Part shown: positions 23,709 through 44,783 of the stretch, in pieces
Layout of the letters: each line of letters opens with the position of its first letter
How positions within the stretch are numbered: position 1 is the first letter of the stretch
Assembly: GCA_027923505.1 (NCBI GenBank)
Contig: BROI01000026.1
Span: 124,001 to 188,000 of the forward strand
Direction of reading: 5' to 3'
Source: Mayamaea pseudoterrestris
Lineage: Eukaryota
DNA: 64,000 nt
The notes under the pieces: model-generated
Seen by the model: the letters and a program-made list of their open reading frames with translations, nothing else
What the model was told of the DNA's origin: nothing
The model's database searches: none
Position numbers and translations under genes: made by a program

Positions 23709-26350
23709 CTATTCGACATAGCATTCGATAATGTCGCCTGGTTCAAAAGTTTCAAAGTCAATCAAACCTATTCCGCACTCGTTCCCGGCCTCAATCTTGT
23801 CCGTCTCAGCCTTGAAGCTACGGAGTGTTCTGAACTTGGTCTCGCACATGATCTTGTCACCTCGCATAACACGGGCATTAGCGCCCTTTTTCAGATATCC
23901 TTCAGTACATCTGCTGCCAGCGATATTACCTGTACCGCCAATGTTGAAAACTTCTTGGACAGTCGCTTCACCAGCGTACTCTCCAGCTGGTGTCGGTGAA
24001 AGAATTTCTTGCATTCTTGACTCCACTGATTCAATGGCATCGTACACGACACTGTAATATTCAATAGGTATGCTTAGCGCTCGGGCGTCGTCCATGGCCG
24101 ACATGCTGGCTGCCACATTAAACGCAAGAACCGTCGTTCCAGGAGTCACGCTCGCAATAGCAATGTCGCTCTTGGAAACTTCGCCCGCCTCGCTGACAAG
24201 AACCTTGATGGTAACGACCGCTTCGTCATTCTCAAGCTTCAGCTCACGCAGCGCTCGCGTCAACGCCTCGGCCGTCCCTTGTACGTCAGCCTTGACGACG
24301 ACACACATTTCTCGGACAGCCTTCCGACTTCCAAACGCTGCCGACACAGAGTCGAACAGCCCAGACTGATACGAAGACGACTGGCGCTCCAAAGCAATCC
24401 TTTGACGCGACTCGGCCAGTTGGCGAGCCGTTTGCTCATCGTCACAGACCACGAGAATGTCGCCTGCGCTTGGAATGCCTTCAAAACCAGCAACCAATAC
24501 TGGCATACTCGGGCCAGCTTCATCCATACGTGACTTTCCATCTGTCGTGGAGATCAAGGCCTTGACCTTGCCAAACGTTTCTCCAGCAACAAAAATGTCA
24601 CCGATGCGAAGGGTTCCACCCTTGATGAGCGTTGTCGCGACTGTTCCAAGCCCCTTTTCAATGTTTGCTTCAATAATGATACCGTCAGCCATGCGATCAG
24701 CGTTTGCTTTGAGATCCTGGATTTCGGTTTGTAGCATAATCTTGTCCAAAAGATCGTCAAGATTGGTTCCTTCCTTGGCACTAATTTGAGACGACAGCAC
24801 TTCACCTCCAAAATCCTCGGTCAATATGTCATATCCAGTCAGGTCCGTGGCAACTCGGTTCGGATCAGCAGTCTCTAAATCGCACTTGTTGATTGCAATC
24901 ACTAGCGGAACTCCAGCCTGTCGCGCGCATACAATCGAGTCGGCCGTTTGCTGCTTGACGCCATCATCCGCCGCCACCACCAAAATGACAAGATCCGTAA
25001 TGTTAGCTCCGCGCTGACGCATGTCGGTGAATGCCGCATGGCCAGGTGTATCGATGAAGGTAATGGGTCGGCCCTTGTGTTCCACCTGGTAGGCTTGAAT
25101 GTGCTGCGTAATGCCACCAGCCTCTCCGGCAGTGACGCGTGTGTTGCGGATCTTGTCCAGCAACGAAGTCTTGCCATGATCAACGTGTCCCATGATGGTG
25201 ACGACGGGCGGTCTGGGTTCCAAGTCATCCTCATCATCCATAAAGTCTGCCACTCCCGTCTCCAGCGCGCTGTCTTCCATGTCGTATTCGTCATCGTCCT
25301 CATCGTCGTCTTCATCATCATCCTCGTCATCGCCCATGTCGCTCACTCCAACGACAAACTTTCCAAAGCCTTCCACGACAGCGACACAAGTAGCTGGATC
25401 GAGTGTTTGCGTCATGCTCGCCATGACTCCAAGGTCCGTCATGAGAAACTTGATGACGGCTACTGGCTTTTCGTCAATCGCTTCGGCAAGTTCACCAACC
25501 GACAGAGGACCTCTGCAAGAACAAAACAAGGTTAACTTGAGCAAACCTTTCCTCGAAAATCACACACAATACAACAAAACCAGCAGCAGCGACACGACTC
25601 ACTCCTTTAACACAACCATGCGTCTCTCCAAGTTTGCTTCGGCGCGGGCCATCTTGTCCGCCGTGTATCGATTCTTCTTCTTTAAGCTGCCACGCCGCTG
25701 CGCTCCTTCGGCCGAGCGTCCTCGCTTGGTGGATCCACCGAGCTTCAACGACTGTCTTCCGGCGGGCCTTCCGTCATCATTGGCCCCAGGCTTGCGCTTG
25801 CGAAATGCTCCGGCGGCACCTCCCGGTGGTTTGGCTCGTCCAAAGGTGCCAGGCTTGCGATCCATGGTGGGACCTGATGGCGCACTGCCACCGGAATTGT
25901 TGCTTCCTCCCGAGTAGCCGGATGAGTCTCCTGTGTTTGGAAGGAGTATAATGATTGTGAGACGGATAAATTTTGGAATGGAGAATGAATCGAGACAGCA
26001 TTCCATGGCAAGCGCTAGCACTTGTTACAAGTACCATTTCACGTACTCGTCCGTTGCTGTCCACCATTTGGATTCATGGTACTAGCCGAAGCGACATATC
26101 CTCCTCCTCCATTGGGACGATTACCATATCCTCCATTGCCATTTCCACCAGGCCTTCGTTGCTGTGGCGCATTGGGGTCTCGCTCGCGCCGCTCACCGTT
26201 GCCGCGTCCGCCATTGTCGCTTCGTTCCCTCCGCGGAGGAGCCTCCGCCACCAGTCGTACCAACTTGAGCGGCTGGCTGAGCTTGAGGACGCCCTGTCGC
26301 TGCTGACTGCGTTGCTGCTGACTCTGACTGCGAGGTTGTTGTTGTTGTTG

Positions 26351-28335: not shown

Positions 28336-28448
28336 GTTGTGATGAGCGCACAAGTGGTCTGCATGTTTCTCGCGTTTCAACGTTTGCAGCTGTTCGTCGG
28401 ACCGGTAATCATTGACGTCATCATCTGCTAGCAGTTGAGACTATGCAT

Positions 28449-31234
28449 ATTCAGGCTGCGCTATAAGATGATAAGCTTGGCTGGTGTCTCAGAAGATGGT
28501 AATGTATTTGGTGACAACTTGTCACCAGTCTCAGCCCGCAGATGCGGTGACATTCAAACGCCCCTACAGCAAGCCCTGTAGGTGCCCAAAATACACCAGA
28601 ATGGTGCCAACAACATTAATCAGGCTGCGCTACAAGATGGTAGGCTTGGCTGGTGTCTCAGGGTATGGCAATGTATTTGGTGACAACTTGTCACCAGTCT
28701 CAGCCCGCAGATGCCGTGACATTCAAACGCCCCTACAGCAAGCCCTGTAGGTGCCCAAAATACACCAGAAATGTGGCAACAACATTATTCAGGCAGCGCT
28801 ACAAGATGGTAGGCTTGGCTGGTGTCTCAGGGGATGGCAATGTATTTGATGACAACTTGTCACCAGTCTCAGCCCGCAGATGCTGGACATTCAAACACCC
28901 CTACAGTAAGCCCTGTAGGTGCCCAAAATACACCAGAATGGTGCCAACATCATTATTCAGGCTGCGCTACAAGATGATAAGCTTGGCTGGTGTCTCAGGG
29001 GATGGCAATGTATTTGGTGACAACTTGTCACCAGTCTCAGCCCGCAGATGCCGTGACATTCAAATGCCCCTACAGCAAGCCCTGTAAGTTGCCAAATTAC
29101 ACCAGAATGGTGCCAATATGATTATTCAGGCGGCGCTACAAGATGGTAGGCTTGGCTGGTGTCTCAGGGGATGGCAATGTATTTGGTGACAACTTGTCAC
29201 CAGTCTCAGCCTGAAGATGCTGGACATTCAAACATCCCTACAGCAAGCCCTGTAGGTGCCCAAAATACACCAGAATGGTGCCAACATCATTATTCAGGCG
29301 GCGCTACAAGATGGTAGGCTTGGCTGGTGTCTCAGGGGATGGCAATGTATTTGGTGACAACTTGTCACCAGTCTCAGCTGCAGATGCCGTGACATTCAAA
29401 CGCCCCTACAGCAAGCCCTGTCGGTGCCCAATATACACCAGAATGGTGCCAACATTATTATTCAAGATGCGCTACAAGATGGTAGGCTTGGCTGGTGTCT
29501 CAGGGGATGGCAATGTATTTGGTGACAACTTGTCACCAGTCTCAGCCCGCAGATGCCGTGACATTCAAACGCCCCTACAGCAAGCCTTGTAGGTGCCCCA
29601 ATTACACCAGAATGGTGCCAACATCATTATTCAGGCGGCGCTACAAGATGGTAGGCTTGGCTGGTGTCTCAGGGGATGGCAATGTATTTGGTGACAACTT
29701 GTCACCAGTCTCAGCCCGCAGATGCTGGACATTCAAACGCCCCTACAGCAAGCCCTGTAGGTGCCCAAAATACACCAGAATGGTGCCAACATCATTATTC
29801 AGGCTGCGCTACAAAATGGTAGGCTTGGCTGGTGTCTCAGGGGATGGCAATGTATTTGGTGACAACTTGTCACCAGTCTCAGCCTGCAGATGTCATGACA
29901 TTCAAACGCCCCTACAGCAAGCCCTGTAGGTGCCCAATATACACCAGAATGGTTCCAACATCATTATTCAGGCTGCGCTACAAGATGGTAGGCTTGGCTG
30001 GTGTCTCAGGGGATGGCAATGTATTTGGTGACAACTTGTCACCAGTCTCAGCCCACAGATGCCGTGACATTCAAATGCCCCTACAGCAAGCCCTGTCGGT
30101 GCCCAAATTACATCAGAATGGTGCAAACATCATCATTCAGGCTGCGCTACAAGATGGTAGGCTTGGCTGGTGTCTCAGGGGATGGCAATGTATTTGGTGA
30201 CAACTTGTCACCAGTCTCAGCCCGCAGATGCCGTGACATTCAAACGCCCCTACAGCAAGCCCTGTAGGTGCCCAAAATACACCAGAAAGGTGCCAACATC
30301 ATTATTCAGGCGGCGCTACAAGATGGTAGGCTTGGCTGGTGTCTCAGGGGATGGCAATGTATTTAGTGACAACTTGTCACCAGTCTCAGCCCACAGATGC
30401 CGTGACATTCAAACGCCTCTACAGCAAGCCTTGTAGGTGCCCCAATTACACCAGAATGGTGCCAACATCATTATTCAGGATGAGCTACAAGATGGTAGGC
30501 TTGGCTGGTGTCTCAGGGGATGGCAATGTATTTGGTGACAGCTTGTCACCAGTCTCAGCCCGCAGATGCCGTGACATTCAAACGCCCCTACAGCAAGCCC
30601 TGTAGGTGCCCAAAATACACCAGAATGGTGCCAACATCATTATTCATGCTGCGCTACAAGATGGTAGGCTTGGCTGGTGTCTCAGGAGATGGCAATGTAT
30701 TTGGTGACAACTTGTCACCAGTCTCAGCCCGCAGATGCCATGACATTCAAACGCCCCTACAGCAAGCTCTGTAGGTGCCCAATATACACCAGAATGGTTC
30801 CAACATCATTATTCAGGCTGCGCTACATGATGGTAGGCTTGGCTGGTGTCTCAGGGGATGGCAATGTATTTGGTGACAACTTGTCACCAGTCTCAGCCCG
30901 CAGATGCCGTGACATTCAAATGCCCCTACAGCAAGCCCTGTAGGTGCCCAAAATACACCAGAATGGTGCCAACATCATTATTCAGGCGGCGCTACAAGAT
31001 GGTAGGCTTGGCTGGTGTCTCAGGGGATGGCAATGTATTTGGTGACAACTTGTCACCAGTCTCAGCCCGCAGATGCCATGACATTCAAACGCCCCTACAC
31101 CAAGCCCTGTAGGAGCCCAAAATACACCAGAATGGTGCCAACATCATTATTCCGGCTGCGCTACAAGATGGTAGGCGTGGCTGGTGTCTCAGGGGATGGC
31201 AATGTATTTAATGACAACTTGTCACCAGTCTCAG
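28449..31234. repeat. 169-bp tandem satellite, block 1 (~16.5 copies)
   Basis: Head-to-tail units; shadow ORFs recur at 30001, 30170, 30339, 30508, 30677, 30846, 31015 (169-bp period). Confidence 0.97.
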
Positions 31235-31563
31235 TGACACGATAATATCAGACGAACCTTTATTCCAGTGACTACAATGGACTAGGAGCGATCAACCTCT
31301 TCGTCCAGCGTAAAGCAAACAAACAAACTCAATTGCTAGAATAGTGCATGTTACTCGCTACTCTACTCGTGCGCTTCTTTCTCGTTCTCACTGGGTTCAC
31401 GGTCGAGGTTCACGCCTCGATCGTCAGCGATTTCACTCATGTATGTGAGGATTCGGTCACAAGTGTGACTCAACCCTGCACAGGATTAAATGCATACAAA
31501 ACACAGGTAGCTAACCGTCTTGTCATGAGACGCAGGTCAACTCAACTCAATAATATTGTGTCA
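31235..31563 (-). mobile_element. 3' LTR (329 bp) of copia element 1
   Basis: TGACA...TGTCA termini; near-identical to 34907-35235; preceded on the minus strand by purine tract AGATCAAGGGGGA (PPT). Confidence 0.92.
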
Positions 31564-31574
31564 TCCCCCTTGAT

Positions 31575-32124
31575 CTAGGCTTGTGACAATGATCGGTTTG
31601 CCGTATCACCCTTCCAGAAAAGAATCGGAATGATCAGGGGTCGGAACGTGGCATGCGGCAAGAACTTGGTAAGAACGTCGGCGACGTTCTGCTTGCCGAT
31701 GATGTGCTCAAAGTACAGAACATTGCTTGCAATGGCCTCGCGAACTCGGTGGTAGGCGAGCGCATTGTGTCGCTTAGAAAGTGTGGAGTGCGGGATCGTT
31801 GACGACTTCTTGACACTTTCGTTGTCGCCGAACATCCAGGCTGGTCCACTCAAAGGAACTCCCAACATGCGTAGGGAGTATCGGAAATCCATAATCTGTT
31901 CCGTCGCGGTCTTGGCGACGACGAACTCGGATTCGTACGTTGCAGTCTCAACAGTATTCTGACGCTTGCAGAACCATTCGACGGGCGTCTGGTTCAGGAA
32001 ATGCAGGACTCCCATTGCGGAACGTCCAGTAGTGTAATCATGGTACAGGTTCGCGTCCATAAAGGTAGTTAGTTGCACAGGCTTGCCCTTCGGGATCGGC
32101 ATATTCCACGGCAGCTCTTCGGCA
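31575..32124 (-). pseudogene. RNase H remnant of Ty1/copia pol (diatom CoDi-type)
   Basis: DANLYHDYTTGRS, CKRQNTVETATYESEF, MFGDNESV, KRHNALAYHRVRE, NVADVLTK; truncated at its 5' side by the satellite. Confidence 0.92.
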
Positions 32125-34820
32125 GGCCCTACAGCAAGCCCTGTAGGTGCCCAAAATACACCCAAATGGTGCCAACATCTATATTCAGGCGGCGCTACAA
32201 GATGGTAGGCTTGGCTGGTGTCTCAGGGGATGGCAATGTAAAATGTCACCAGTCTCAGCCCGCAGATGCCGTGACATTCAAATGCCCCTACAGCAAGCCC
32301 TGTAGGTTGCCAAATTACACCAGAATGGTGCCAACATCATTATTCAGGCTGCGCTACAAGATGGTAGGCTTGGCTGGTGTCTCAGGGGTGAATGGCTTGA
32401 GACAACTTGTCACAGCTTCAGCCCGCAGATGCTAGATTATTTAAACACCCTACAGCAAGCCTGTAGGTGCCCAAAATACACCAGGATGGTGCCAACATCA
32501 TTATTCAGGCGGCGCTACAAGATGAGGCTTACTGGTGTCTCAGGGGCGAGTAATGTATTTATGACAACTTGTCACTCAGTCTCAGCCCCGCAGATGTCGC
32601 GGATTCAAAACGCCCTACAGCAAGCCCTGTAGGTGCCCAAAATACACCAGAATGGTGCCAACATAATTATTCAGGCGGCACTACAAGATAATAGGCTTGG
32701 CTGGTGTCTCAGAGGATGGCAATGTATTTGGTGAAAACTTGTCACCAGTCTCAGCCTGCAGATGCTGGACATTCAAACACCCCTACAGCAGCCCTGTAGG
32801 TGCCCAAAATACACCAGAATGGTGCCAACATCATTATGCAAGCTGCGCTACAAGATGGTAGGCTTGGCTGGTGTCTCAGGGTTGGCAATGTATTTGGTGA
32901 CAACTTGTCACCAGTCTCAGCCCGCAGATGCTGTGACATTCAAACGCCCCTACAGCAAGCCCTGTAGGTGCCCAATATACACCAGGATGGTGCCAACATC
33001 ATTATTCAGGCGGCGCTACAAGATGGTAGGCTTGACTGTCTCAGGGGATGGCAATGTATTTGGTGACAACTGTCACTCTTGTCTCAGCCCGGATGCGTGT
33101 GAATTCAAACAAAGAAGTGAGGTGCCCAAAATACACCAAAATGTGCAACATCATTATTCAGGTGCGCTACAAGATGGTGGTTGGCTGGTGTCTCAGGGGT
33201 GGTGTTTTGGTGACAACTTGTCACCATTCTCAGCCTGCAGATGCCGTGACATTCAAACACCCCTACAGCAAGCCCTGTAGGTGCCCAAAACACACCAGAA
33301 TGGTGCCAACATCATTATTCAGGCGGCGCAACAAGATGGTAGGCTTGGCTGGTGTCTCAGGGGATGGCAATGTATTTGGTGACAACTTGTCACCAGTCTC
33401 AGCCCACAGATGCGGTACATTCAAACACCTCTACAGCAACCTGTAGGTGCCCAAAATACACCCAGAATGGTTCCAACATCCTTATTCAGGCTGCGCTACA
33501 AGATGGTAGGCTTGGCTGTGGTGTCCTCCGGGGATGCCAATGTATTTGGTGACATCTTGTCACCAGTCTCAGCCCGCCCAGATGCCGTGACATTCAAACG
33601 CCCCTACAGCAAGCCCTGTAGGTGCTCAAAATACACCAGAATGGTGCCAACATCATCATTCAGGCTGCGCGCACAAGATGGTAGGCTTGGCTGGTGTCTC
33701 AGGGGATGGCAATGTATTTGGTGACAATCTTGTCACCAGTCTCAGCCCGCAGATGCCGTGCGACATTCAAACGCCCCTCAGCAAGCCCTGTAAGTGCCCA
33801 AAATACACCAGAATGGTGCCAACATCATCTTCAGGCTGCGCTATAAGATGGTAGGCTTGGCTGGTGTCTCAGGGGATGGCAATGTATTTGGTGACAACTC
33901 GTCACCAGTCTCCGCCCGCAGATGCCGTGACATTCAAATGCCCCTACAGCAAGCCCTGTAAGTGCCCAAAATACACCAGAATGGTGCCAACATCACTATA
34001 TAAGCAGCGCTACAAAATGGTAGGCTTAGCTGGTGTCTCAGGGGATGGCAATGTATTTGGTGACATCTTGTCACCAGTCTCAGCCCGCAGATGCCGTGAC
34101 ATTCAAACGCCCCTACAGCAAGCCCTGTAGGTGCCCAAAACTACGCAGAATGTGCCAACATCACTAGAAAGCAGCTGCAAATGGCTGAGCAGCAGATTGT
34201 CTCAGTTGATGGTAATGTATTTGGTGACAACTCGTCCCAGTCTCCGCCCACCAGATGCCGTGACATTCAAATGCCCACAGCAAGCCCTGTAAGTGCCCAA
34301 AATACACCAGAATGGTGCCAACATCACTATATAAACGCACCGCAACAAATGGTAGGCTTAGCTGGTGTCTCAGGGATAACAATGTATTTGGCGACACTCT
34401 TGTCACCAGTCTCAGCCCTTGAATGCAGTGTGAGACATTCAAACGCCCCTACAGCAAGCCCTGTAGGTGCCCAAAATACACCAGAATGGTGCCAACATCA
34501 TCATTCAGGCTGCGCTACAAGATGGTAGGCTTGGCTGGTGTCTCAGTTGATGGCAATGTATTTGGTGACAACTCGTCACCAGTCTCCGCCCGCAGATGCC
34601 GTGACATTCAAATGCCCCTACAGCAAGCCCTGTAAGTGCCCAAAATACACCAGAATGGTGCCAACATCACTATATAAGCAGCGCTACAAAATGGTAGGCT
34701 TGGCTGGTGTCTCAGTTGATGGCAATGTATTTGGTGACAACTCGTCACCAGTCTCCGCCCGCAGATGCCGTGACATTCAAATGCCCCTACAGCAAGCCCT
34801 GTAAGTGCCCAAAATACACC
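32125..34820. repeat. 169-bp tandem satellite, block 2 (~16 copies, more indels)
   Basis: Same unit and orientation as block 1; several copies carry small indels. Confidence 0.95.
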
Positions 34821-35235
34821 TCAGTCGTTCTTGTTGTCGACGCGCAGAGCTTGCTGCGACAACATGTCGAAAAAGATAGTCATAATCTTCCGCAAGACTG
34901 TTAATCTGACACGATAATATCAGACGAACCTTTATTCCAGCGACTACAATGGACTAGGAGCGATCAACCTCTTCGTCCAGCGTAAAGCAAACAAACAAAC
35001 TCAATTGCTAGAATAGTGCATGTTACTCGCTACTCTACTCGTGCGCTTCTTTCTCGTTCTCACTGGGTTCACGGTCGAGGTTCACGCCTCGATCGTCAGC
35101 GATTTCACTCATGTATGTGAGGATTCGGTCACAAGTGTGACTCAACCCTGCACAGGATTAAATGCATACAAAACACAGGTAGCTAACCGTCTTGTCATAA
35201 GACGCAGGTCAACTCAACTCAATAATATTGTGTCA
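34821..35235 (-). mobile_element. 5' LTR (34907-35235), PBS and ~86-bp leader of copia element 1
   Basis: 329-bp LTR with two substitutions seen versus 31235-31563; adjacent non-satellite leader. Confidence 0.88.
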
Positions 35236-36565
35236 AGTAGGTTGCTCCAAGTGGTTCCACCACATCAAAGTTTCAGATGGGATTTGTATAGTGATGCAAC
35301 CTGGCCACCAAGAATCTGAACCTGCTACTGCAATCCGCAGAAGGCGCTTGACAAGGTCCAAGGCATGGAAATTTGAAAACAGCAGCTATTCCGGCAGTGG
35401 CTGTGATGTGACTGAGACTGAAACAAGTAGGGTGTTCCATGTGCCAAACACAGCAAAGTTTCAGTTGGGATTTATGAGATGATCCAACTTTGCTAGCATG
35501 ATTCTGAGCATGCCATGGCAATCAGGATAAGATGTTTGACAAAGTCAAAGGTTGAGATTTTCCAATTTGGAAGCCAGTCAGCCAGTGTTCATGCGTGAAT
35601 ACAGCAAGTAGGTTCCTCCAAGTGGTTCCACCACATAAAAGTTTCAGATGGGATTTGTATAGTGATGCAACCTGGCCACCAAGAATCCGAACCTGCTACT
35701 GCAATCCGCAGAGGGTGCTTGACATGGTCCAAGGCTTGGAACTTTGAAAACAGCAGCAATTCTGGCAGTGGCTGTGGTGTGACTGAGACTGAAACAAGTA
35801 GGGTGTTCCATTTGCCAAACACAGCAAAGTTTCAGTTGGGTTTTTTGTGATGATCCAAATAGGATGTAGAACAGACATAACATGATTTATTTGGTTTGTG
35901 CGCAAGAATAGATTATTCAATGTGCTTGTGGGTGCCAGAGCAAGTGGCATATAGCAGGAACAATGGCTTGGCCCATCATTTATGTTTCATAATACAATGG
36001 AAATGGAAACTATAATGAGTCATGGCGCCCTTCCACTACCATGACAGGACAGCAATGGCCTGTTTGACTGATCATTAATGCACTGAGCCTCCTTCAGCAA
36101 AAGGTTGGAGCCTGGTTGGTTTTTGGTGGTCAGTTGGTGTGTCATTTCCACACAGTCTCTGGAGCATTGGCCAGAGCTTGGAGAGACCCTGGTGCATGAT
36201 ATCCATTCCATGGGATGTAGAACAGTCACTAACATACATGTTTTGGGTTTGTGCGCAAAAATGGATCATTCCATGTGCTTGTGGGTGCCAGAGCAAGTGG
36301 CATATAGCAGGAACAATGGCTAGGCCCATCATTTTATGGTTCATAAAACAATGAAGTATAGACTATATCGTGCCATGGCGCCCTTCCACTACCATGGCTG
36401 GACAGCATTGGCCTGTTTGATGGATCATTGATGCACAGAGCCTCCTTCAGCAAGTGGTTGGTGCCTGGTTGGTGTTTGGCAGTCAGCTGGTGCAGTTTCT
36501 TCAACACATTCCCTGGAGCATTGGCCAGAGCATGGCCAGAGCGTGGTGCATGAAGTCCATTCCAT
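35236..36565. repeat. Two diverged tandem duplications (~371-bp and ~353-bp offsets)
   Basis: AGTAGGTT(G/C)CTCCAAGTGGTTCCACCAC at 35236 and 35607; GTGCCAGAGCAAGTGGCATATAGCAGG at 35932 and 36285. Confidence 0.85.
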
Positions 36566-37188
36566 ACACCCAAAGTCACACCAGAATAGTGCCACATCAT
36601 TATTCCATCTGGGACAGATGGAGTTTCAGGTGGGTGCCTTAGTAGACTGCAATGTGACTGGTGAGAAGTTCTCACCAGTCTCAGCCCACAGATGCCTGAA
36701 CATTCAATTTCCCATAAAACATGCCAGGTATACACCCAAATCAGACCAGAATGGTGCCAACATCATTATAAGTCTGCGCTACAAGATGGTATGCCTAGCT
36801 GATGTCTCAGTATACTGCAATGTGACTGGTGAGAACTTCTCACCAGTCTGAGCCCTCAGATGCCGTGACATTCAATTCCCCATATAACATGCCATGTATA
36901 CACCCAAATCACACCTGAATAGTGACAACATCATTATTCAGTCTGCGCTACAAGATGGTATGCCTAGATGGTGTCTCCATGGACTGCAATGTGACTGGTG
37001 ACAAGTTGTCACCAGTCTCAGCCAGCAGCTGCCATGCCTTTCAAATGCCCATACCGTGAGCCATGTGTACACCCAAATCGCACCAGAATGGGGCCAACAT
37101 CATTATAAGTCTGCGCTACAAGATGGTATGCCTAGCTTGTGTCTCAGTGGACTGCAATGTGACTGGTGAGAACTTCTCACCAGTCTCA
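36566..37188. repeat. Diverged subfamily of the 169-bp satellite (~4 copies, 168-169 bp)
   Basis: Shares CCAGAATGGTGCCAACATCATT, CTGCGCTACAAGATGGTA and CACCAGTCTCAG with the main satellite; dyads at 36656, 36824, 36993, 37161. Confidence 0.9.
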
Positions 37189-37663
37189 CGGAATTACATG
37201 ATGGGAACGAAAGGGTTGGGAATAACATTAAATTGGTTGACAGTGTCCATGAGCTGGGCATAGTGGTGCATGGTTGATAGGGCCTGAATGTGGAGGTAGC
37301 GGAGCATGGCGTCAGAGTGCTAGCAACCAATTAGGCGAATGTGGTCGGAGTCCAGGTTGGAAATAAGTGAGCTTGGGCGCCACCCGCGCGAAGCGAGCGG
37401 GCGTGAGCAGTGCAAGCCCGTCGCGTGCTCACATGACTTTACTGGGCCCCGCCCTGAGCATTCTGTCATCAGATAAGTGCCGTTGATATGTACCGGTACA
37501 TCCGACTGCCAGGATTTCGGTTTGGCTTGTTGAACCGGTATGTCGCAGCGGCTAAATGAATGTCGCTCAGGTTCTCACCACCATTCTTTATTATTATTTC
37601 GTCGCCTCCACAAAATTCGAGAGACATGCCTCGCAACATAACTCTGGATGCCGATCAATTGAC

Positions 37664-37796
37664 ATGTCATTCAACCGGAGGGAGCTTCTTTGCTTCGCAG
37701 GAGGAATTATATTGTATGGAACCGTTTCGCAGCTTTATGGAGCGCAATCAATGACGTCGTCAGTGGCTGAACAACCGGTCTCGATCGAGGACTTTA
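37664..37796 (+). pseudogene. 5' part (signal anchor) of a sulfotransferase-like gene interrupted by copia element 2
   Basis: MSFNRRELLCFAGGIILYGTVSQL...SIEDF; joins in frame to 43028 onward once the element and one TSD copy are removed. Confidence 0.8.
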
Positions 37797-40700
37797 TGTT
37801 GGATCTAGAATATATCTTGCGCGCCCTTGAAGCGACACTAATGATTAAGCAGAACAGAGTCAATAAAACCACTTTACTTATTTTCTCCAAGAAGTGATCG
37901 TCCTCGATCCACTCCTTCGGTTGCCGCTTACCGCGCTTACTTAAATGTGACCGTCTTCGTGACGTCACCGCTGCCGCTTCGGTTTGGGTTCTCATCCATG
38001 CTCAACACACTCCTTTGGGCCGAGTAGTACTTACTGCTCGAGGCCAGATTCATAACCAGGTTGCGGAGCTTGCCAAACTGGGCTCCCTGCAATGGTTTCG
38101 TGAAGAAATCCGCGACCATGTCTCCGGTCGGACAATGCTCAATGTTGACTTCACCAGCTGCCACGCGATCTTTCACAAAGAAGTACCGAACATTCATGTG
38201 TCGCGTGCGCTTTGTACTTGAGCTTCTGCCATTCTTTTCCAACAGCATTGAACTCATATTGTCTTGATACAATTTCGTGTCTTTGACCCCGAAACCTTGC
38301 GCCTTCAGAAAATATCCTGTCCACAGCAACTGCGGTAGCACATCATGAACTCCCACAACTTCGCTCTCCGTCGAGCTTCTTGTTACCAACTTCTGTTTAG
38401 CCGACGTACTGTACACTGATCCTTGGCCAAGTGTCATTGTTCCACCAGTGTGACCCTTCATGTCTGGGTGCACCGCGTACGACGCATCCACCCACCACTG
38501 GACTATCCCGGACTGGTCCGCCTTCAGCGTCAACACCATGTCCACGCTTCCGCGTAAATATTTAATCACTCTTGCAGCCTTCTTATAGTCGTCTTCGTCA
38601 GGCTGCTGCAGCCTCGTGCTCAAGAAAGAAATCGCTGTGCGAATATCCGGTCGCGCTCGCTGACTCAGATACAGACACTGCATCACAATCGTCACAAAAA
38701 TCTGCTTCTTCGCTTCGCTCAACATGACAGGATTTTCCGATATCTGAAACAAGTGACTGGCTGCCGGAGTAGCTGCCGTTCCATCCATGTCGTCTGGCGC
38801 ATGATGCAGGATGTTCTTCACATAGTCAACCATGTTGATTGCTACTTCTCCAGGCTTAGTATAGTCCAATACCATGCCGAGGTAGTCGTGCACTTTTCCG
38901 CGTGACTTATTCATTGGAGTCTCCTTGCCAAACTCCTCATCCATCTGCGCGATGAACTCATCCACTACGCTCACGTCGACGTCAGAAATCTTCAAATCGT
39001 CCACGTGCCATCCCACGGTGATTTGCTTCCCATTGACAATCTTGTTGCACACACACGGATCGTACGGGTTCTTCTCGAAGCCCCACTCAAGCAATTTTGC
39101 GGACAACTTCTCCCAGAATAGTCGCGCTGCTCGAAGCGTACCATAAAGCGCCATGAGTAATTCAACATACATGACTTTCTCGCCATTCTCCATTGTGACG
39201 CAAGGCTCGTACATCTCGCGATCAATTTCCAACAGTAGCTCCACCATCTTCCCAGTGAAACGAACGTGCACCAACTCATCCATTTCCGCTTGCATGAAAG
39301 CACCGGTACATCAACCACAGCAACCTCGCGCCCTTCCATAGCGTCAATGATAGCTGTCAGAAAGATGGCCTCTGTCGCTATCGTTGGAGATGCTGCGTCT
39401 TCCTTTGCAGTGTATGCTCGTTGCTTGCGTCCATCCGCGCATCCGCGTCCCTTCACAGTCCCGCATCTCTTGCGCTTGAGAAACATCAAATACGCCAGAG
39501 CGTCCTTGCGCTGCTGCGGAGTCAGAGTGCATTGGGGGACTGCCTTCATGACGTGCCTGTCGTGTAGCTGCTGCATTTCCTTGCGCACTGCCTCCACTCC
39601 AGCATCGCCAAAAGCCTTTAAACCTTGTCGCATATTCATCTGTGCCGTGACGAGTGGCTCCGACACTTCCTCTGCAGCGTCGAGCGTGAACAAATGAGCG
39701 AACGAGCGAGGTTTGCGCGCACGCAGGCCATACCGACCAGTGCGTGGGCCATAGCGCGCATCGAAATCCTCTTCGTCTGCAGCAGCTGGCACTCCTTCAA
39801 TTTCGCCTTCACCGGGCACTCCTTCAATTTCGCCATCATCCACGGCTGGCGCGTCGTCAAGTTCGCCGTCAATGGCCTCACCATCCTCGTCGTTCGGCAC
39901 TCCTTCGATTGCGCCGTCAGCACCATCGTCGTCGTCGTCGTCGTCATCGGTCGCATTCACTCCTTCGCTTCCGCCGGCAGAGTCGTCGTCACCGCGAGAA
40001 GCGTCGTCATCATAATCAGAGTCATCATCATCCTCGGCGTCATCTTCGTGCCCACATGACTGGCTCAGCAGCCTCCGCAACACGGTGGCGGTCCATGAAC
40101 ACGATGCCCGGATTGGCCTTCTGTTGACGAAGCGAGACGATGCACGCGCTCAATGACATCATCAGGCATGGGCAAAGGCGTAGCGTGCCCACGATTCAGA
40201 ACTTTGCCCGAAGACAAACTGAGGAAATAAAACCCACCCTGCACATTACCAGTCGGGCGCAGAGCCAGCGCACCGATCGTGCGCGCCTGCATGTCATTGC
40301 TGTGCGACTCATGCGTTTGCACATACTGACCAAATTCATACTTGCAATGCCGATTAAAGTCAACTGTCTGACCAGTCACAATAGTGCGTGGACTGAGATC
40401 CTTCGAAATGCCACGCTCGTTCGGAAACGCATTCACACAAAACACGGCAGACTTCGTCATTTCGATAACCAAGCGTGCCGGCACGTGCTTAAATGGCAAC
40501 GTGTTGTATGTCGCGCGCACCCGTTCTTTCACGACACGGATAAAACGTTCAATTTCGCCAACGTGTTCATCCTCAGATGTCGCATTGAGCGCCACTCCGA
40601 GATCAGCCAACGCGCCAAGCATTGGAGCGAACTCCCCATCCATCAGAGCCGCGACGACACGGAACCCACCGCGTGCGTAAATCTTCAACACAGACTCGAT

Positions 40701-43022
40701 TGCCTTCAACATAACCGGAAGCGTACGGTTTTGAATCACCTCAACCGTAGCAAAACGAATGCTGCGGGAGAACGTCACCAACATAGGGACTTTGTTGATA
40801 TACATGATGTCAGCACAAAGAGTAACGTCTCGATAGCGACTCATGATAGCCGGTGGAAGCTGCTCAACAATCGCAGGCTTCACCAGATGCGACGCGCGAC
40901 GCGTCGTCTTTCCTTTAACGAGCCAACATCTGGTCCAAAGATGTGCTCAGCAGCCAGGATGTCGGCCTTCGTCACAGGACAGTTCGGCAACTGATTGCTA
41001 GTAACGATGCGCAGGTAATCCTTGAGGCTTGGCCGTCCAATTTTGATTTGCAGTTCCCTAGCTCTAACAGCGCGTAAATAGTCATCATTGGTGTAGTTAG
41101 TACGGTTATCGTCTACCGTAGTCAACATCGCCACTCCATCCTTGACATCGCTGCGCTTGCCCTTCGAAAAGCTCTCGCAAACATACAGCCCAGAGTCAGT
41201 CTCGACAAACTCTCGCTGCTTACCATCCGGCTTCTCCACAACGAACATTGGACGATCCACGCCGTGCATGAGATACTCCACGGTAAACTTCTTGCGGACT
41301 TGCGCCAAACTCAAAATGTTCGCCAGTCCCTGCGGATACCACCACACCGGACCATAGCCCTCCAGGTCGCCCATCATGTTCGTCCTTACTGTACCAGCGT
41401 TGCACTTGATCACCATCCACGTTGGCACCGGGCGAATGTTCGTCAGCATCTTGGCGTTGCAGAACAGATCCACTGTCGACTGATTGTCCAAGAGCACAGC
41501 CTTCTTCGAGATGTTCACCTTCGGCGGCTGCGCGAACATGTATCCGACCTCATCGTCGTCATCGCTTTCTTCCTCGCTACCCAGCGTGAAGTGCTGCGCC
41601 CCACTAGCCTCTGCAGCCGGCGCACTCTCCGTAGACTCCGTTCTCGTAGGACAGTCTCGCTGCACATGACCAACCTGTTGACAGGTCCAGCATCTGGGAG
41701 GGTCACGCGCTGTACCAGTCGTGTGAAACGCCACGCCCTCGTTCGTTGGCAACGTGGCTTCTCCATCCGCATGCTCACGACGCTGCATGATGTTGTATGC
41801 ATCGTGGATCGTCAACGGGAAGTTGTCGTGCCCGTCGAGGTAGCAGTTGCGCAAGTGCTTGCAATACCCAGCGTATTCGCCCGTTGCGCCACGCACGAAA
41901 AGCATCGCAAGCTCGAGCTCTTCGGCGGCCTTGATATCCTCCTTGTTCGCCTTGTTACGATTGTCATCCTTGGCAATGTTCAACGCCACAATCTCGTTGT
42001 GCATCGTGACGCCAACCGCCTTCGCCACGTCTGCCAGCGTGACCATGCTTTCGTAATATTTCTGCAGGCTTTCGCGCGCTCCTTGAGTACGTCCGAACAA
42101 CTCAGCTTGAATGTCCACGACTTGATCCACAAGTTTGCAGCGCCCTTCGTACGTATGCGAGATCTCCTTGATAATCGCCAGCAACTTAATTCCGTCCGTG
42201 TCCTCCTCGGCGTCTCGGAACTTGGCGTGCGACTTGACACGATCCTTCATACGCTCCGTGCATTGTCCATGCAACACGGCGTAGAGACCAGCGAGGAAGT
42301 CGGAGTATACACGCACGCGCTCGACATGCTCTTTCTTGTCGGCCTTGTATTCCTCGAGCATTATGGACCAGTCCGAGTCCGTCGTGTCGGCATCCTTCGT
42401 TGGACGTGCAGGCTCGTCAGGAATCTCCAGTTCCACGTTGCGCATGCCCTTGAGCAGCTCCTTGGTATATTTCTTGTAGGAGCGCCCGACGAAAGTGATG
42501 ATCTCGTTCGTCGTACGGATGAATCCATCGGGATCGCGCGAACCGTTATAGTCGTAGATGAATCCAGCGAGCGTCGGCTCGCTTCCTTGGAAATTTCCAC
42601 TCGGCGCACGACTCGGTCCGTTGAGTCTGTTACCATTGCCTTGATTCCCGGAACGATTCCCAGCACGATTCCCACGACGATAATGACGGTTGCGTCGGTT
42701 TCCTTCGCTTGCTGGCGGAGCGGGAGGTGCACCTCCACCGCTCGACGCCGCTCCTGTCGTCGGAGTATTGCTCGTCGAAGACATGTCTTTTCACTCGCTT
42801 CTTGGAGAAAATGTTGGATCTAGAATATATCTTGCGCGCCCTTGAAGCGACACTAATGATTAAGCAGAACAGAGTCAATAAAACCACTTTACTTATTTTC
42901 TCCAAGAAGTGATCGTCCTCGATCCACTCCTTCGGTTGCCGCTTACCGCGCTTACTTAAATGTGACCGTCTTCGTGACGTCACCGCTGCCGCTTCGGTTT
43001 GGGTTCTCATCCATGCTCAACA
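37797..43022 (-). mobile_element. Full-length Ty1/copia LTR retrotransposon (element 2, CoDi-type)
   Basis: Identical 211-bp LTRs (37797-38007, 42812-43022; TGTTG...CAACA), 5-bp TSD CTTTA (37792-37796, 43023-43027), domain order gag-PR-IN-RT-RH. Confidence 0.97.
37937..42784 (-). CDS. Gag-Pol polyprotein of element 2, broken into four ORFs by frameshifts
   Basis: Zinc knuckle CWTCQQVGHVQRDC, protease LLDNQST, integrase ADIMYIN...MDGEF...HVGEIER, RT KGRGCADG...ALYGTL...WHVDDL, RNase H DASYA...ADFFTKPL. Confidence 0.92.
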
Positions 43023-43027
43023 CTTTA

Positions 43028-44783
43028 CTCTTTCAGTCATTGGCCTTTCGCAATCAATCCAGCGAAAACAAATGGCTCTGGAGAAAGAGAAAAATACAGC
43101 GGACAAACTGGCAAATGCAGCAGTAGGAAATGACGACGACGACGACGACGACGACAAGCAACTTCTTAGCGAAAAGGAACGATTAGCAATCGCCATGGAA
43201 ATCCAACGACGCAACCGAAGGACCCGAAAACCGCGAGGAAAGAACAAACTTCCGACGCCAATCTTTCTGCTCTCACTTCCCAAGTCGGGGACGACTTCTA
43301 CTCATAAATTCTTCACATGTGGCTTGGGTAATACGTATGCTTCAGCCAATCATTGGGTGCAACCCATTGGCAAAAAGCAGATGCGGGCAGGCCAATGCAT
43401 GTACGATAACGTTCAAAAGGGCCGAAACATTTTAAAAGGCTGCGGAAACTATCAGGTCTATACAGACATTGGTGCAGTTTGGAATGATCGGATGAGCAGT
43501 ACGCGATCGTCGTCAAACTGCTACTACCCTTCCATTCATGGCCTGGACGCCATTTACAACGACTATCCCAATGCAACGATTATGATTGTCCATCGCAACA
43601 GCACGGACTGGGCCAAAAGCATATTCACATGGAACAACTTGGCAGGTAGACTAAGTCGGTGTCCTGGCTTTCCCGTGACGCCTTACTCGCCCGAAGACCA
43701 AACGCATGATCATTTGCAGGAATGGATCGAGTTTTACGACCAGCATACCCTATCGATTCGAAAATTCGCTCGAGACCATCCATCAATGACCTTTGTCGAA
43801 GCCGCACTTGAACCAGACAAAACTGCCAGTCGTCTTAAAACACTGACTGGTATTGACGCTGATTGCTGGAAGAAGTGCAAGCCGGAAGTTGGGTGCGTTG
43901 AGACGGATGCCCACGGCAATGAGCTGCCTATGTCAAATGCACTACAAAAGGTTCGACAAAGATTGGCACGAAGCAATTTGAACTTTGCTCCATACCAGCA
44001 AGGTGGTCCACTGTTTGAAGCGCCAAGCACATCCATTGCCGTCAATGAAATGCTTAACGTTCCGCTACCAATATTCGTCTTGTCGCTGCCACGGACGAGC
44101 CTTCATAGAGTACGTGAACCAAATCTGTCATATAAAGCCGTCACTCGTACCTCATGCCACCAGCTCACCATGCTTTGTGCTAATCGTCACAACAGATACA
44201 TTCATATTTTAGATGCGGATTCAAAGAAACGAATAATGATGCTGCCAACGTCCGTTATCGGACTGTCGTTGTCAACGACCGCGAGAATTATAGTGAGGAG
44301 ATAGAAGCCGGTCGGAAAATGTGGAAAAATAAGCAGGCTGGTCTTTCTTTAATGCATGGTATTGACATGGAAAGTATTTTGACAGATATAAGTTCGTTTT
44401 GGGAACAAGATGGAAAGTCTATCTGCTATTTTCCGTCTCTTCATGATCTGGAAGGTCTCTTCGATAGCGCGCCATCGGCAAGCTTTCTGCTCCTCACACG
44501 CGACAGCGTCGACTGGGCGAAAGAAATACACAACAATGCCAATCTCATGGGAAGACTCTCAATGGCTTGTGGTGGAGACGGGTTTCCACAGTCTCCCTAC
44601 GAGCCCGAGGATCGCACGCAAGACGATATACAGGAGTGGGTCGACTTTTACGATGAACACACGGAGGCAATACGCACGTTTGCCGCCGAGCGTCCATCGT
44701 TGACCTACATTGAAATTAATATGGATATCAACACTGGTGATCAGCTGGAAGAGCAGATTGGTATTACTGCGTCCTGTTGGTAG
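43028..44783 (+). CDS. Sulfotransferase-like (P-loop) protein with two tandem domains; 3' part of the interrupted gene (intron 44110-44195)
   Basis: PAPS-binding-like IFLLSLPKSGTTS; second, degenerate domain IFVLSLPRTSL; internal repeat GFPxxPYxPEDxTxDxxQEWxxFYDxHT in both domains. Confidence 0.7.

Follow-up and report, generated by a model that had tools for sequence, protein, structure and literature searches.

In a 64,000-nt stretch of the genome of the diatom Mayamaea pseudoterrestris (contig BROI01000026.1, hereafter the window), a Ty1/copia retrotransposon on the minus strand appears to prime minus-strand DNA synthesis with its own RNA, in the manner of the Schizosaccharomyces pombe element Tf1. 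We put the probability of this reading at roughly 85%. [quoted passage not shown] The anatomy of the element, this complementarity and its conservation, with full covariation, in related elements were all observed directly. A preliminary description of the window had proposed tRNA-independent, Tf1-like self-priming in a copia element; comparison with 30 relatives, in which the PBS covaries with the LTR, strongly supports that proposal.

The element is bounded by two 100% identical repeats (37796-38008 and 42811-43023, start-to-start spacing 5015 nt), and the ends of the LTRs were set by trimming this pair to TG..CA, giving 211 bp each. Within the 5' LTR, CTTCTTGGAGAAAAT (42909..42895) matches the reverse complement of ATTTTCTCCAAGAAG (42812..42798) at every base, with 82 nt separating the two arms. 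The perfect 15-nt match between LTR interior and LTR end that had been read from the window beforehand was therefore exact, and the inverted repeat can be extended to 18 nt with one mismatch (42912..42895 and 42812..42795). Since 42812 is the final base of the LTR, the 3' arm begins exactly at the LTR end. The accompanying motifs were also recovered: TCA directly precedes the 5' arm (42912..42910), the AT-rich TTTAAGTAA, placed about 45 nt upstream in the preliminary description, lies 43-51 nt upstream of the arm (42960..42952), and no TGG of a tRNA-type PBS follows the 5' LTR. A study of plant elements used as its criterion an LTR complement of at least 10 bp located 0-5 bp past the LTR (PMC6317226); the complement found here measures 15 bp, counted from the last LTR base.

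Within the region 42600-43100, the second-longest inverted repeat measured only 8 nt. The region was shuffled with its dinucleotides preserved, and the longest perfect inverted repeat with a spacer of 20-400 nt was scored. An inverted repeat of at least 15 nt was obtained in 1 of 2000 shuffles, most of which gave 7-9 nt, so that a single match of this length is possible by chance at a low rate. When the 3' arm is required to lie at the LTR end, the chance becomes far smaller, about 198/4^14 by arithmetic.

The RT-RH frame of the element, encoding reverse transcriptase (RT) and RNase H (RH), has thousands of relatives in metagenomes, the best with 78% identity. Metagenome contigs were scanned using an alignment of 26 RT-RH relatives, which gave 79 loci with 39-71% RT-RH identity. 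A blind scan of the sense strand of these loci (342,223 nt) for perfect inverted repeats of at least 12 nt with a spacer of 30-300 nt yielded 43 inverted repeats, and 29 of them share the architecture of the window element. In this architecture, which lies either downstream of RNase H or upstream of gag, the 3' arm begins at the final A of a ..CAACA terminus or one base past it, and the 5' arm is found 49-205 nt upstream of the 3' arm, immediately following (T)CA. The remaining 14 repeats are not related to it; among them, four sit in one nested palindrome of locus L038, further ones in low-complexity repeats (L030, L041), and single ones in L011, L015, L042, L051 and L078. Locus L010 represents a 30th relative with the helix, formed here by 13 Watson-Crick and 2 G-U pairs. 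This locus has both LTRs (93% identical) and real flanks, and the unrelated sequence beyond its 3' LTR confirms that the LTR ends at CAACA. A helix of 14-17 nt at the equivalent place was thus found in 30 relatives among the 79 loci, and these relatives together with the window element make up the set of 31 elements analysed below. LTR/PBS complementarity in related elements, which the preliminary description had singled out as a test of self-priming, was found in the 30 relatives, with 25 distinct PBS sequences among the 31 elements.

An independent test set was drawn up on criteria that ignore the helix, namely a tblastn match to the first 100 residues of the window gag frame and the presence of at least 250 nt upstream of the inferred start. 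Among the 17 loci retained, 14 carry a perfect helix of 14-16 nt, one has the helix with G-U pairs (L010) and one has a 1-nt bulge in a homopolymer together with a mutated LTR end (L024). The unbiased rate of the helix is 14-16 in 17.

The contigs carrying the relatives showed some features of their own. Many were 'circular' permutations with the two LTRs collapsed, in which RNase H, polypurine tract (PPT), one LTR, PBS and gag follow in succession. They include L001, L003, L004, L008, L011, L012, L025 and record 17 of run X8, with terminal overlaps of 78-201 nt. The permutation, which has its source in short-read assemblies and could pass for circular DNA, puts PPT, LTR and PBS on one contig. 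The PPT/LTR junction GGAGTG/TGTTGA and the LTR end TCAACA are kept across relatives whose LTRs are otherwise unalignable (junction at 252-259 in L003, 5575-5590 in L010 and 38016-38002 in the window). The nested palindrome of L038 (8016-8475) is made of long perfect inverted repeats with arms of 14-32 nt and is unrelated to the primer helix. One protein with a 69%-identical RT (P0008) is labelled as belonging to a Comamonadaceae metagenome-assembled genome; it probably stems from a eukaryotic contig binned into a bacterial genome.

The sequence of the helix varied widely among the 31 elements. They have 25 distinct 14-nt PBS cores, which differ on average at 8.0 of 14 positions between pairs of elements and are 80% A+T. 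Pairs were counted in 30 distinct rows on coordinates anchored at the LTR-terminal A (position 0), because the 5' arm was misaligned by MAFFT in roughly 6 of the 21 rows. Positions 1-14 were paired in all rows (30/30), with 2-5 pair types per position, and position 0 was paired with U in 25/30. The C before the terminal A (position -1) was paired in none (0/30) and position 15 in 6/30, which corresponds to the chance level. The sharp edges of the helix and the variety of pair types are not products of the way in which the set was selected. RNAalifold, applied to the MAFFT alignment of 21 of the 31 elements, predicted the primer/PBS helix alone, with compensatory changes in 12 of 12 called pairs. 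Complements were also sought for 14-mers from other positions around the LTR end: for 21 other offsets an upstream complement was found in none of the 31 elements, and for the near offsets -1, +1 and +2 it was found in 25, 7 and 1 of them. The recurrence of the same architecture in 30 further elements with different sequences, and the lack of LTR complements at the 21 other offsets, leave next to no probability that the complementarity arose by chance in the window element alone. On the comparative data this explanation is already refuted.

A host tRNA or a tRNA half could instead bind 42811..42798, as in Drosophila copia, Osser and Bianca, the complement in the LTR then being incidental; half-tRNA priming is described for several Ty1/copia lineages (PMC6317226). 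A tRNA primer requires a conserved PBS, yet the PBS is among the most variable stretches of these elements, which argues against tRNA priming. The 25 different A+T-rich cores cannot all match a tRNA, and each PBS perfectly matches its own LTR. In agreement with the absence of TGG noted in the window, a TGG within 0-5 nt of the LTR end was found in 0/31 elements. Rfam gave no tRNA-like or other family above threshold at the primer/PBS region, and ARAGORN detected no tRNA gene within the 64-kb window. We regard priming by a tRNA as very improbable.

The minimum free energy (MFE) fold includes the primer/PBS helix in 31/31 elements. In most of them it also places one or two hairpins inside the loop, which RNAalifold, working on an imperfect alignment, did not call. 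In the R/U5 loops of the 31 elements, a short hairpin mostly follows just after the primer, often starting with CTGGTTT or CTAGTTT, and a second, longer hairpin ends a few bases before TCAACA. In these models, the loop hairpins may correspond to the U5-IR stem-loop of Tf1.

A different function of the helix has to be weighed at this point, namely that of a structural RNA element at the U5/leader junction, acting in packaging, dimerisation or translation control, with reverse transcription started from an unrecognised other primer. Structured U5 elements are described in retroviral and Tf1 leaders, the helix closes a multi-branched fold, and it is sequence comparison, not experiment, that speaks for priming. 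The position of the helix, however, argues against a structural role, as in 25/30 rows its 3' arm has the last LTR base as its own first base, in the others it starts one base later, and the logic of LTR formation puts the minus-strand primer at that very site. There is also no alternative conserved PBS in the 31 elements, in which the 45 nt downstream of the PBS are unrelated and TGG is found in none, and a helix on the PBS would block any other primer. A structural element combined with another primer is thus unlikely, and self-priming remains the preferred reading.

The other end of the helix coincides with a motif that may mark the start of transcription. In the anchored rows, the three bases 5' of the helix are T in 23/30, C in 26/30 and A in 27/30, and the first two bases of the helix are H in 30/30 and W in 30/30. 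For Phaeodactylum, Kadono 2015 put forward the initiator-like consensus TCAH+1W, in which +1 is the base after TCA, and also cited CAY+1A for FCP genes (PMC4686930). The 5' edge of the helix falls on the +1 of the TCAH+1W consensus, which corresponds to 42909 in the window and lies within 1 nt of the start predicted in the preliminary description (about 42910). If the diatom consensus applies, the helix would start at the first transcribed base, 42909, an arrangement that is the hallmark of Tf1.

On this basis, we propose the following replication scheme. The transcript would begin at 42909, immediately past TCA. Its leading 14-15 nt would bend back across the 82-nt R/U5 loop and anneal to a stretch of equal length whose first base is the terminal one of the 5' LTR, either within one RNA or between two packaged RNAs. 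The RNase H of the element would cut the RNA at the 3' end of the helix, leaving a 3'-OH from which synthesis would proceed through U5 and R, and the resulting strong-stop DNA would be transferred to the 3' R. The start site and the RNase H cleavage are steps that we infer. Plus-strand strong-stop DNA would copy the primer up to its 5' end and run off, making the length of the PBS equal to that of the primer. Run-off on a short primer would account for the exact coincidence of the helix end with the predicted transcript start, and a PBS rewritten from the primer in each cycle would stay perfectly complementary. At the 3' edge, the last U of the primer may pair with the LTR-terminal A and remain on the cDNA, or the cut may be made one base earlier. 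Going by the title of Atwood-Moore 2006, the self-primer of Tf1 is reportedly not removed.

Several observations weigh against self-priming or weaken the case for it. The fold of the whole region in the window was only modestly better than that of shuffles (z = -1.78). The transcript start is predicted from the motif, and contig ends added nothing to it: no poly(A)/poly(T) ends were found among the fetched contigs, so no transcript-like contig marks R, and no pile-up of contig ends was seen in the contigs of four runs (three studies) matched to the element. Locus L026, one of the 17 in the test set, showed no such helix even with G-U pairs and two mismatches allowed, and the same result was obtained for L038, the most distant relative (39% identity), which falls outside the test set as its first gag match begins at residue 155. 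Since the 31 positives were found via the helix, the pairing of positions 1-14 in 30/30 rows is partly a matter of selection. Finally, the window copy has four frame breaks and may not encode its own proteins, unless these breaks are assembly errors.

The features of the element are listed in Table 1. Four successive open frames lie between the LTRs on the minus strand (40880-42790, 40065-40946, 38992-40149 and 37937-39310). The last of them contains RVT_2, with RT-RH ending at the PPT and the 3' LTR, which together with the copia-like domain order identifies the element as Ty1/copia. Other hallmarks of this class were present, including a gag zinc knuckle (zf-CCHC), TG..CA LTRs and a 5-bp target-site duplication (TSD), and the class given in the preliminary description was thus confirmed. 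No match to an integrase was found in frame 2, either in Pfam (E up to 10) or among PDB sequences. About 700 amino acids (aa) lie between the zinc knuckle and the RT, where an integrase is expected, and in the Atlas clusters nearest to frame 2, rve, SH3_retrovirus or gag_pre-integrs occur in 13-21% of members, which serves as a lead only. The assignment of the host to the diatoms, also made earlier, agrees with the IF-2 gene of the window (23709-25442), whose best named relatives (Bacillariaceae sp., Nitzschia inconspicua and Fragilariopsis cylindrus, 75-78% identity) are all diatoms. F-box, WW and SNF2/HSA domains mark further genes in the window as being of eukaryotic type. A sigma-70/terminator scan of the window, a type of scan not relevant to a eukaryote, returned nothing.

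Table 1. Features of the Ty1/copia element, in 5' to 3' order of the element; positions are those of the window.
Feature	Position	Strand	Basis
TSD TAAAG, upstream copy	43023..43027	-	read from sequence
5' LTR, 211 bp, TGTTGA...TCAACA	42812..43022	-	identical repeat pair, trimmed
TCA, initiator-like motif directly 5' of the predicted self-primer; predicted +1 = 42909	42910..42912	-	
Predicted self-primer CTTCTTGGAGAAAAT, first 15 nt of the predicted transcript	42895..42909	-	relatives carry an equivalent at the same place
Remainder of R and U5: 82-nt loop closed by the primer/PBS helix; inner hairpins predicted only	42813..42894	-	
PBS ATTTTCTCCAAGAAG, first base = last LTR base, without TGG	42798..42812	-	sequence complementarity
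Frame 1: gag (zf-CCHC) and downstream; ATG 42784..42782, 13 nt past the PBS	40880..42784	-	Pfam
Frame 2: probable integrase region, lead only	40065..40946	-	open frame
Frame 3: acidic linker and start of RT	38992..40149	-	open frame
Frame 4: RT (RVT_2) and RNase H, reading into the 3' LTR	37937..39310	-	Pfam
PPT AAAGGAGTG, abutting the 3' LTR	38008..38016	-	read from sequence
3' LTR, with a second copy of the primer sequence at 37894..37880	37797..38007	-	identical repeat pair
TSD TAAAG, downstream copy	37792..37796	-	read from sequence

According to the literature, self-priming has been demonstrated in Tf1, and it has been proposed to occur in the Tf1/sushi group, Tj1 and Tcn1; all of these are Ty3/gypsy elements (PMC6317226, PMC7175516, PMC4600332, PMC5341516). 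In Tf1, the first 11 nt of the transcript are reported to pair with the PBS (PMC7175516), and RNase H to cut between nt 11 and 12 (PMC7175516, PMC4600332, PMC5341516). Similarly to Tf1/Tf2 of S. pombe, Tj1 and the Tf1/sushi elements, the window element has a PBS right after the 5' LTR which complements the start of its own transcript, which is here a predicted one. It shares with the Tf1/sushi elements the lack of a tRNA-type PBS and a helix that closes a U5 loop, whose structure is here a predicted one. Unlike these elements, which have a gypsy RT in the order protease-RT-RH-integrase (PR-RT-RH-IN), it has RVT_2 with RT-RH last before the PPT and LTR, as is the case in Ty1/copia. Membership in the Tf1/sushi clade was ruled out on these grounds, the RT being copia-type and the domain order copia-like. 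The helix also differs from that of Tf1 in its length (14-15 nt here versus 11 nt) and in the inclusion of the LTR-terminal A, seen here in 25/30 rows.

Within Ty1/copia, Neumann 2019 predicted self-priming for the plant lineage TAR, which includes Houba and Osr-1, and cited a previous proposal made for these two (PMC6317226). Self-priming in copia elements thus has a precedent, and the novelty implied in the preliminary description was overstated. TAR belongs to the same superfamily as the window element and was recognised by in-silico evidence of the same kind, namely 10 bp or more of LTR complement lying 0-5 bp past the 5' LTR (PMC6317226). It differs in its host, a land plant versus a diatom, and was compared here by its description and not by RT sequence. 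The fungal element GalEa is placed in a Ty1/copia branch that also holds the diatom CoDi elements, and likewise has no tRNA PBS (PMC5445492). Its authors described a conserved palindromic 9-bp site with a local hairpin, named the Conserved Hairpin Site, and reported finding no Tf1-like complement in the LTR (PMC5445492). The PBS of the window type is, in contrast, hypervariable, non-palindromic and complementary to the LTR; a GalEa-type Conserved Hairpin Site was tried as a candidate and rejected for these reasons.

The diatom CoDi elements were described as young Ty1/copia elements with near-identical LTRs (Maumus 2009, PMC2806351). The window element resembles them in its diatom host, its class and its near-identical LTRs, a likeness that is drawn from description and not from clustering with the RT of CoDi1-7. 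The main text of Maumus 2009 makes no mention of a PBS (in the primer sense), primer binding, tRNA or priming (PMC2806351). No report of self-priming in diatom elements was found in the literature searched, whose coverage left out subscription journals and supplements. The window element would thus add to a known self-primed kind, and the diatom case is apparently unreported, although its absence from print is not proven.

In most of the matching pieces, contigs of the four runs are at least 99% identical to the element. The flanks of the element in the window (43096-43500 and 37507-37713) had no contig cover, an absence that carries no weight. Relative to the window, all four runs share four single-base indels: one base is gained after each of 39302 and 40913, and one is lost at each of 40051 and 40130. 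The frames of the window copy break at exactly these places, and with the four indels applied the element forms one frame of 1617 aa. Because the run contigs restore the open frame, the prevailing sequence of the family is intact, and the window copy is either defective or affected by assembly errors. Loose ends at the outer edges of the LTRs were joined to other sequences, pointing to further insertion sites in those runs. The identical LTRs, the intact TSD and the intact family sequence together indicate recent activity; the family looks active and the insertion in the window looks recent.

The element lies about 50 bp upstream of the ATG of a divergently oriented 410-aa open reading frame (43072-44304, plus strand) with a weak Sulfotransfer_3 match, which places the insertion in the promoter or 5' untranslated region of this gene. 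An Rfam match to mir-2238 at 43020..43097, outside the LTR, was rejected as a chance hit, with 23 bits against a threshold of 52 bits. On the other side, 28369-37190, directly beside the element, is occupied by several diverged blocks of a 169-bp satellite arranged in large arrays. A weak RNase H-like trace at 31997..31635 (minus strand), with 28% identity to the copia element, is the only other RT/RH-like trace in the window. Flanking it are two 300-nt repeats (31235-31534 and 34907-35206; 99% identical), which grade into the 169-bp satellite, and no LTRs or PBS could be defined around it (within 31235-35206). This trace may correspond to the neighbouring 'element 1' of the preliminary description, for which half-tRNA priming had been suggested there.

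A broader proposition, on which our judgement is evenly balanced, is that self-priming is the rule for the whole deep diatom-associated Ty1/copia clade (RT-RH identity down to about 47%), having arisen independently of Tf1/sushi and TAR, with each family using a private primer/PBS 'address' of 14-15 nt. If this holds, the address would be rewritten by the replication cycle itself, the PBS being copied from the primer. The families would be independent of tRNAs, unable to cross-prime one another and invisible to PBS-directed small-RNA defences built on tRNA fragments. As the primer would begin at the initiator +1, promoter choice would switch transposition competence on or off, as for Tf2. Diatom genomes have been described as shaped by stress-activated copia elements (Maumus 2009, PMC2806351), and the literature searched contains no description of how reverse transcription is primed in these elements. 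For annotation, a self-primed clade would mean that LTR pipelines demanding a tRNA PBS (LTRdigest filters, e.g. PMC7466962) could discard such elements. The transcript start is predicted to one nucleotide (42909), and the 25 primer/PBS pairs provide a natural covariation set for the rules of length and geometry that would govern self-priming outside Tf1. Beyond land plants, the window element and its relatives would represent a further Ty1/copia lineage with self-priming, and this is relevant to the question of whether hairpin priming has an ancient origin or evolved repeatedly.

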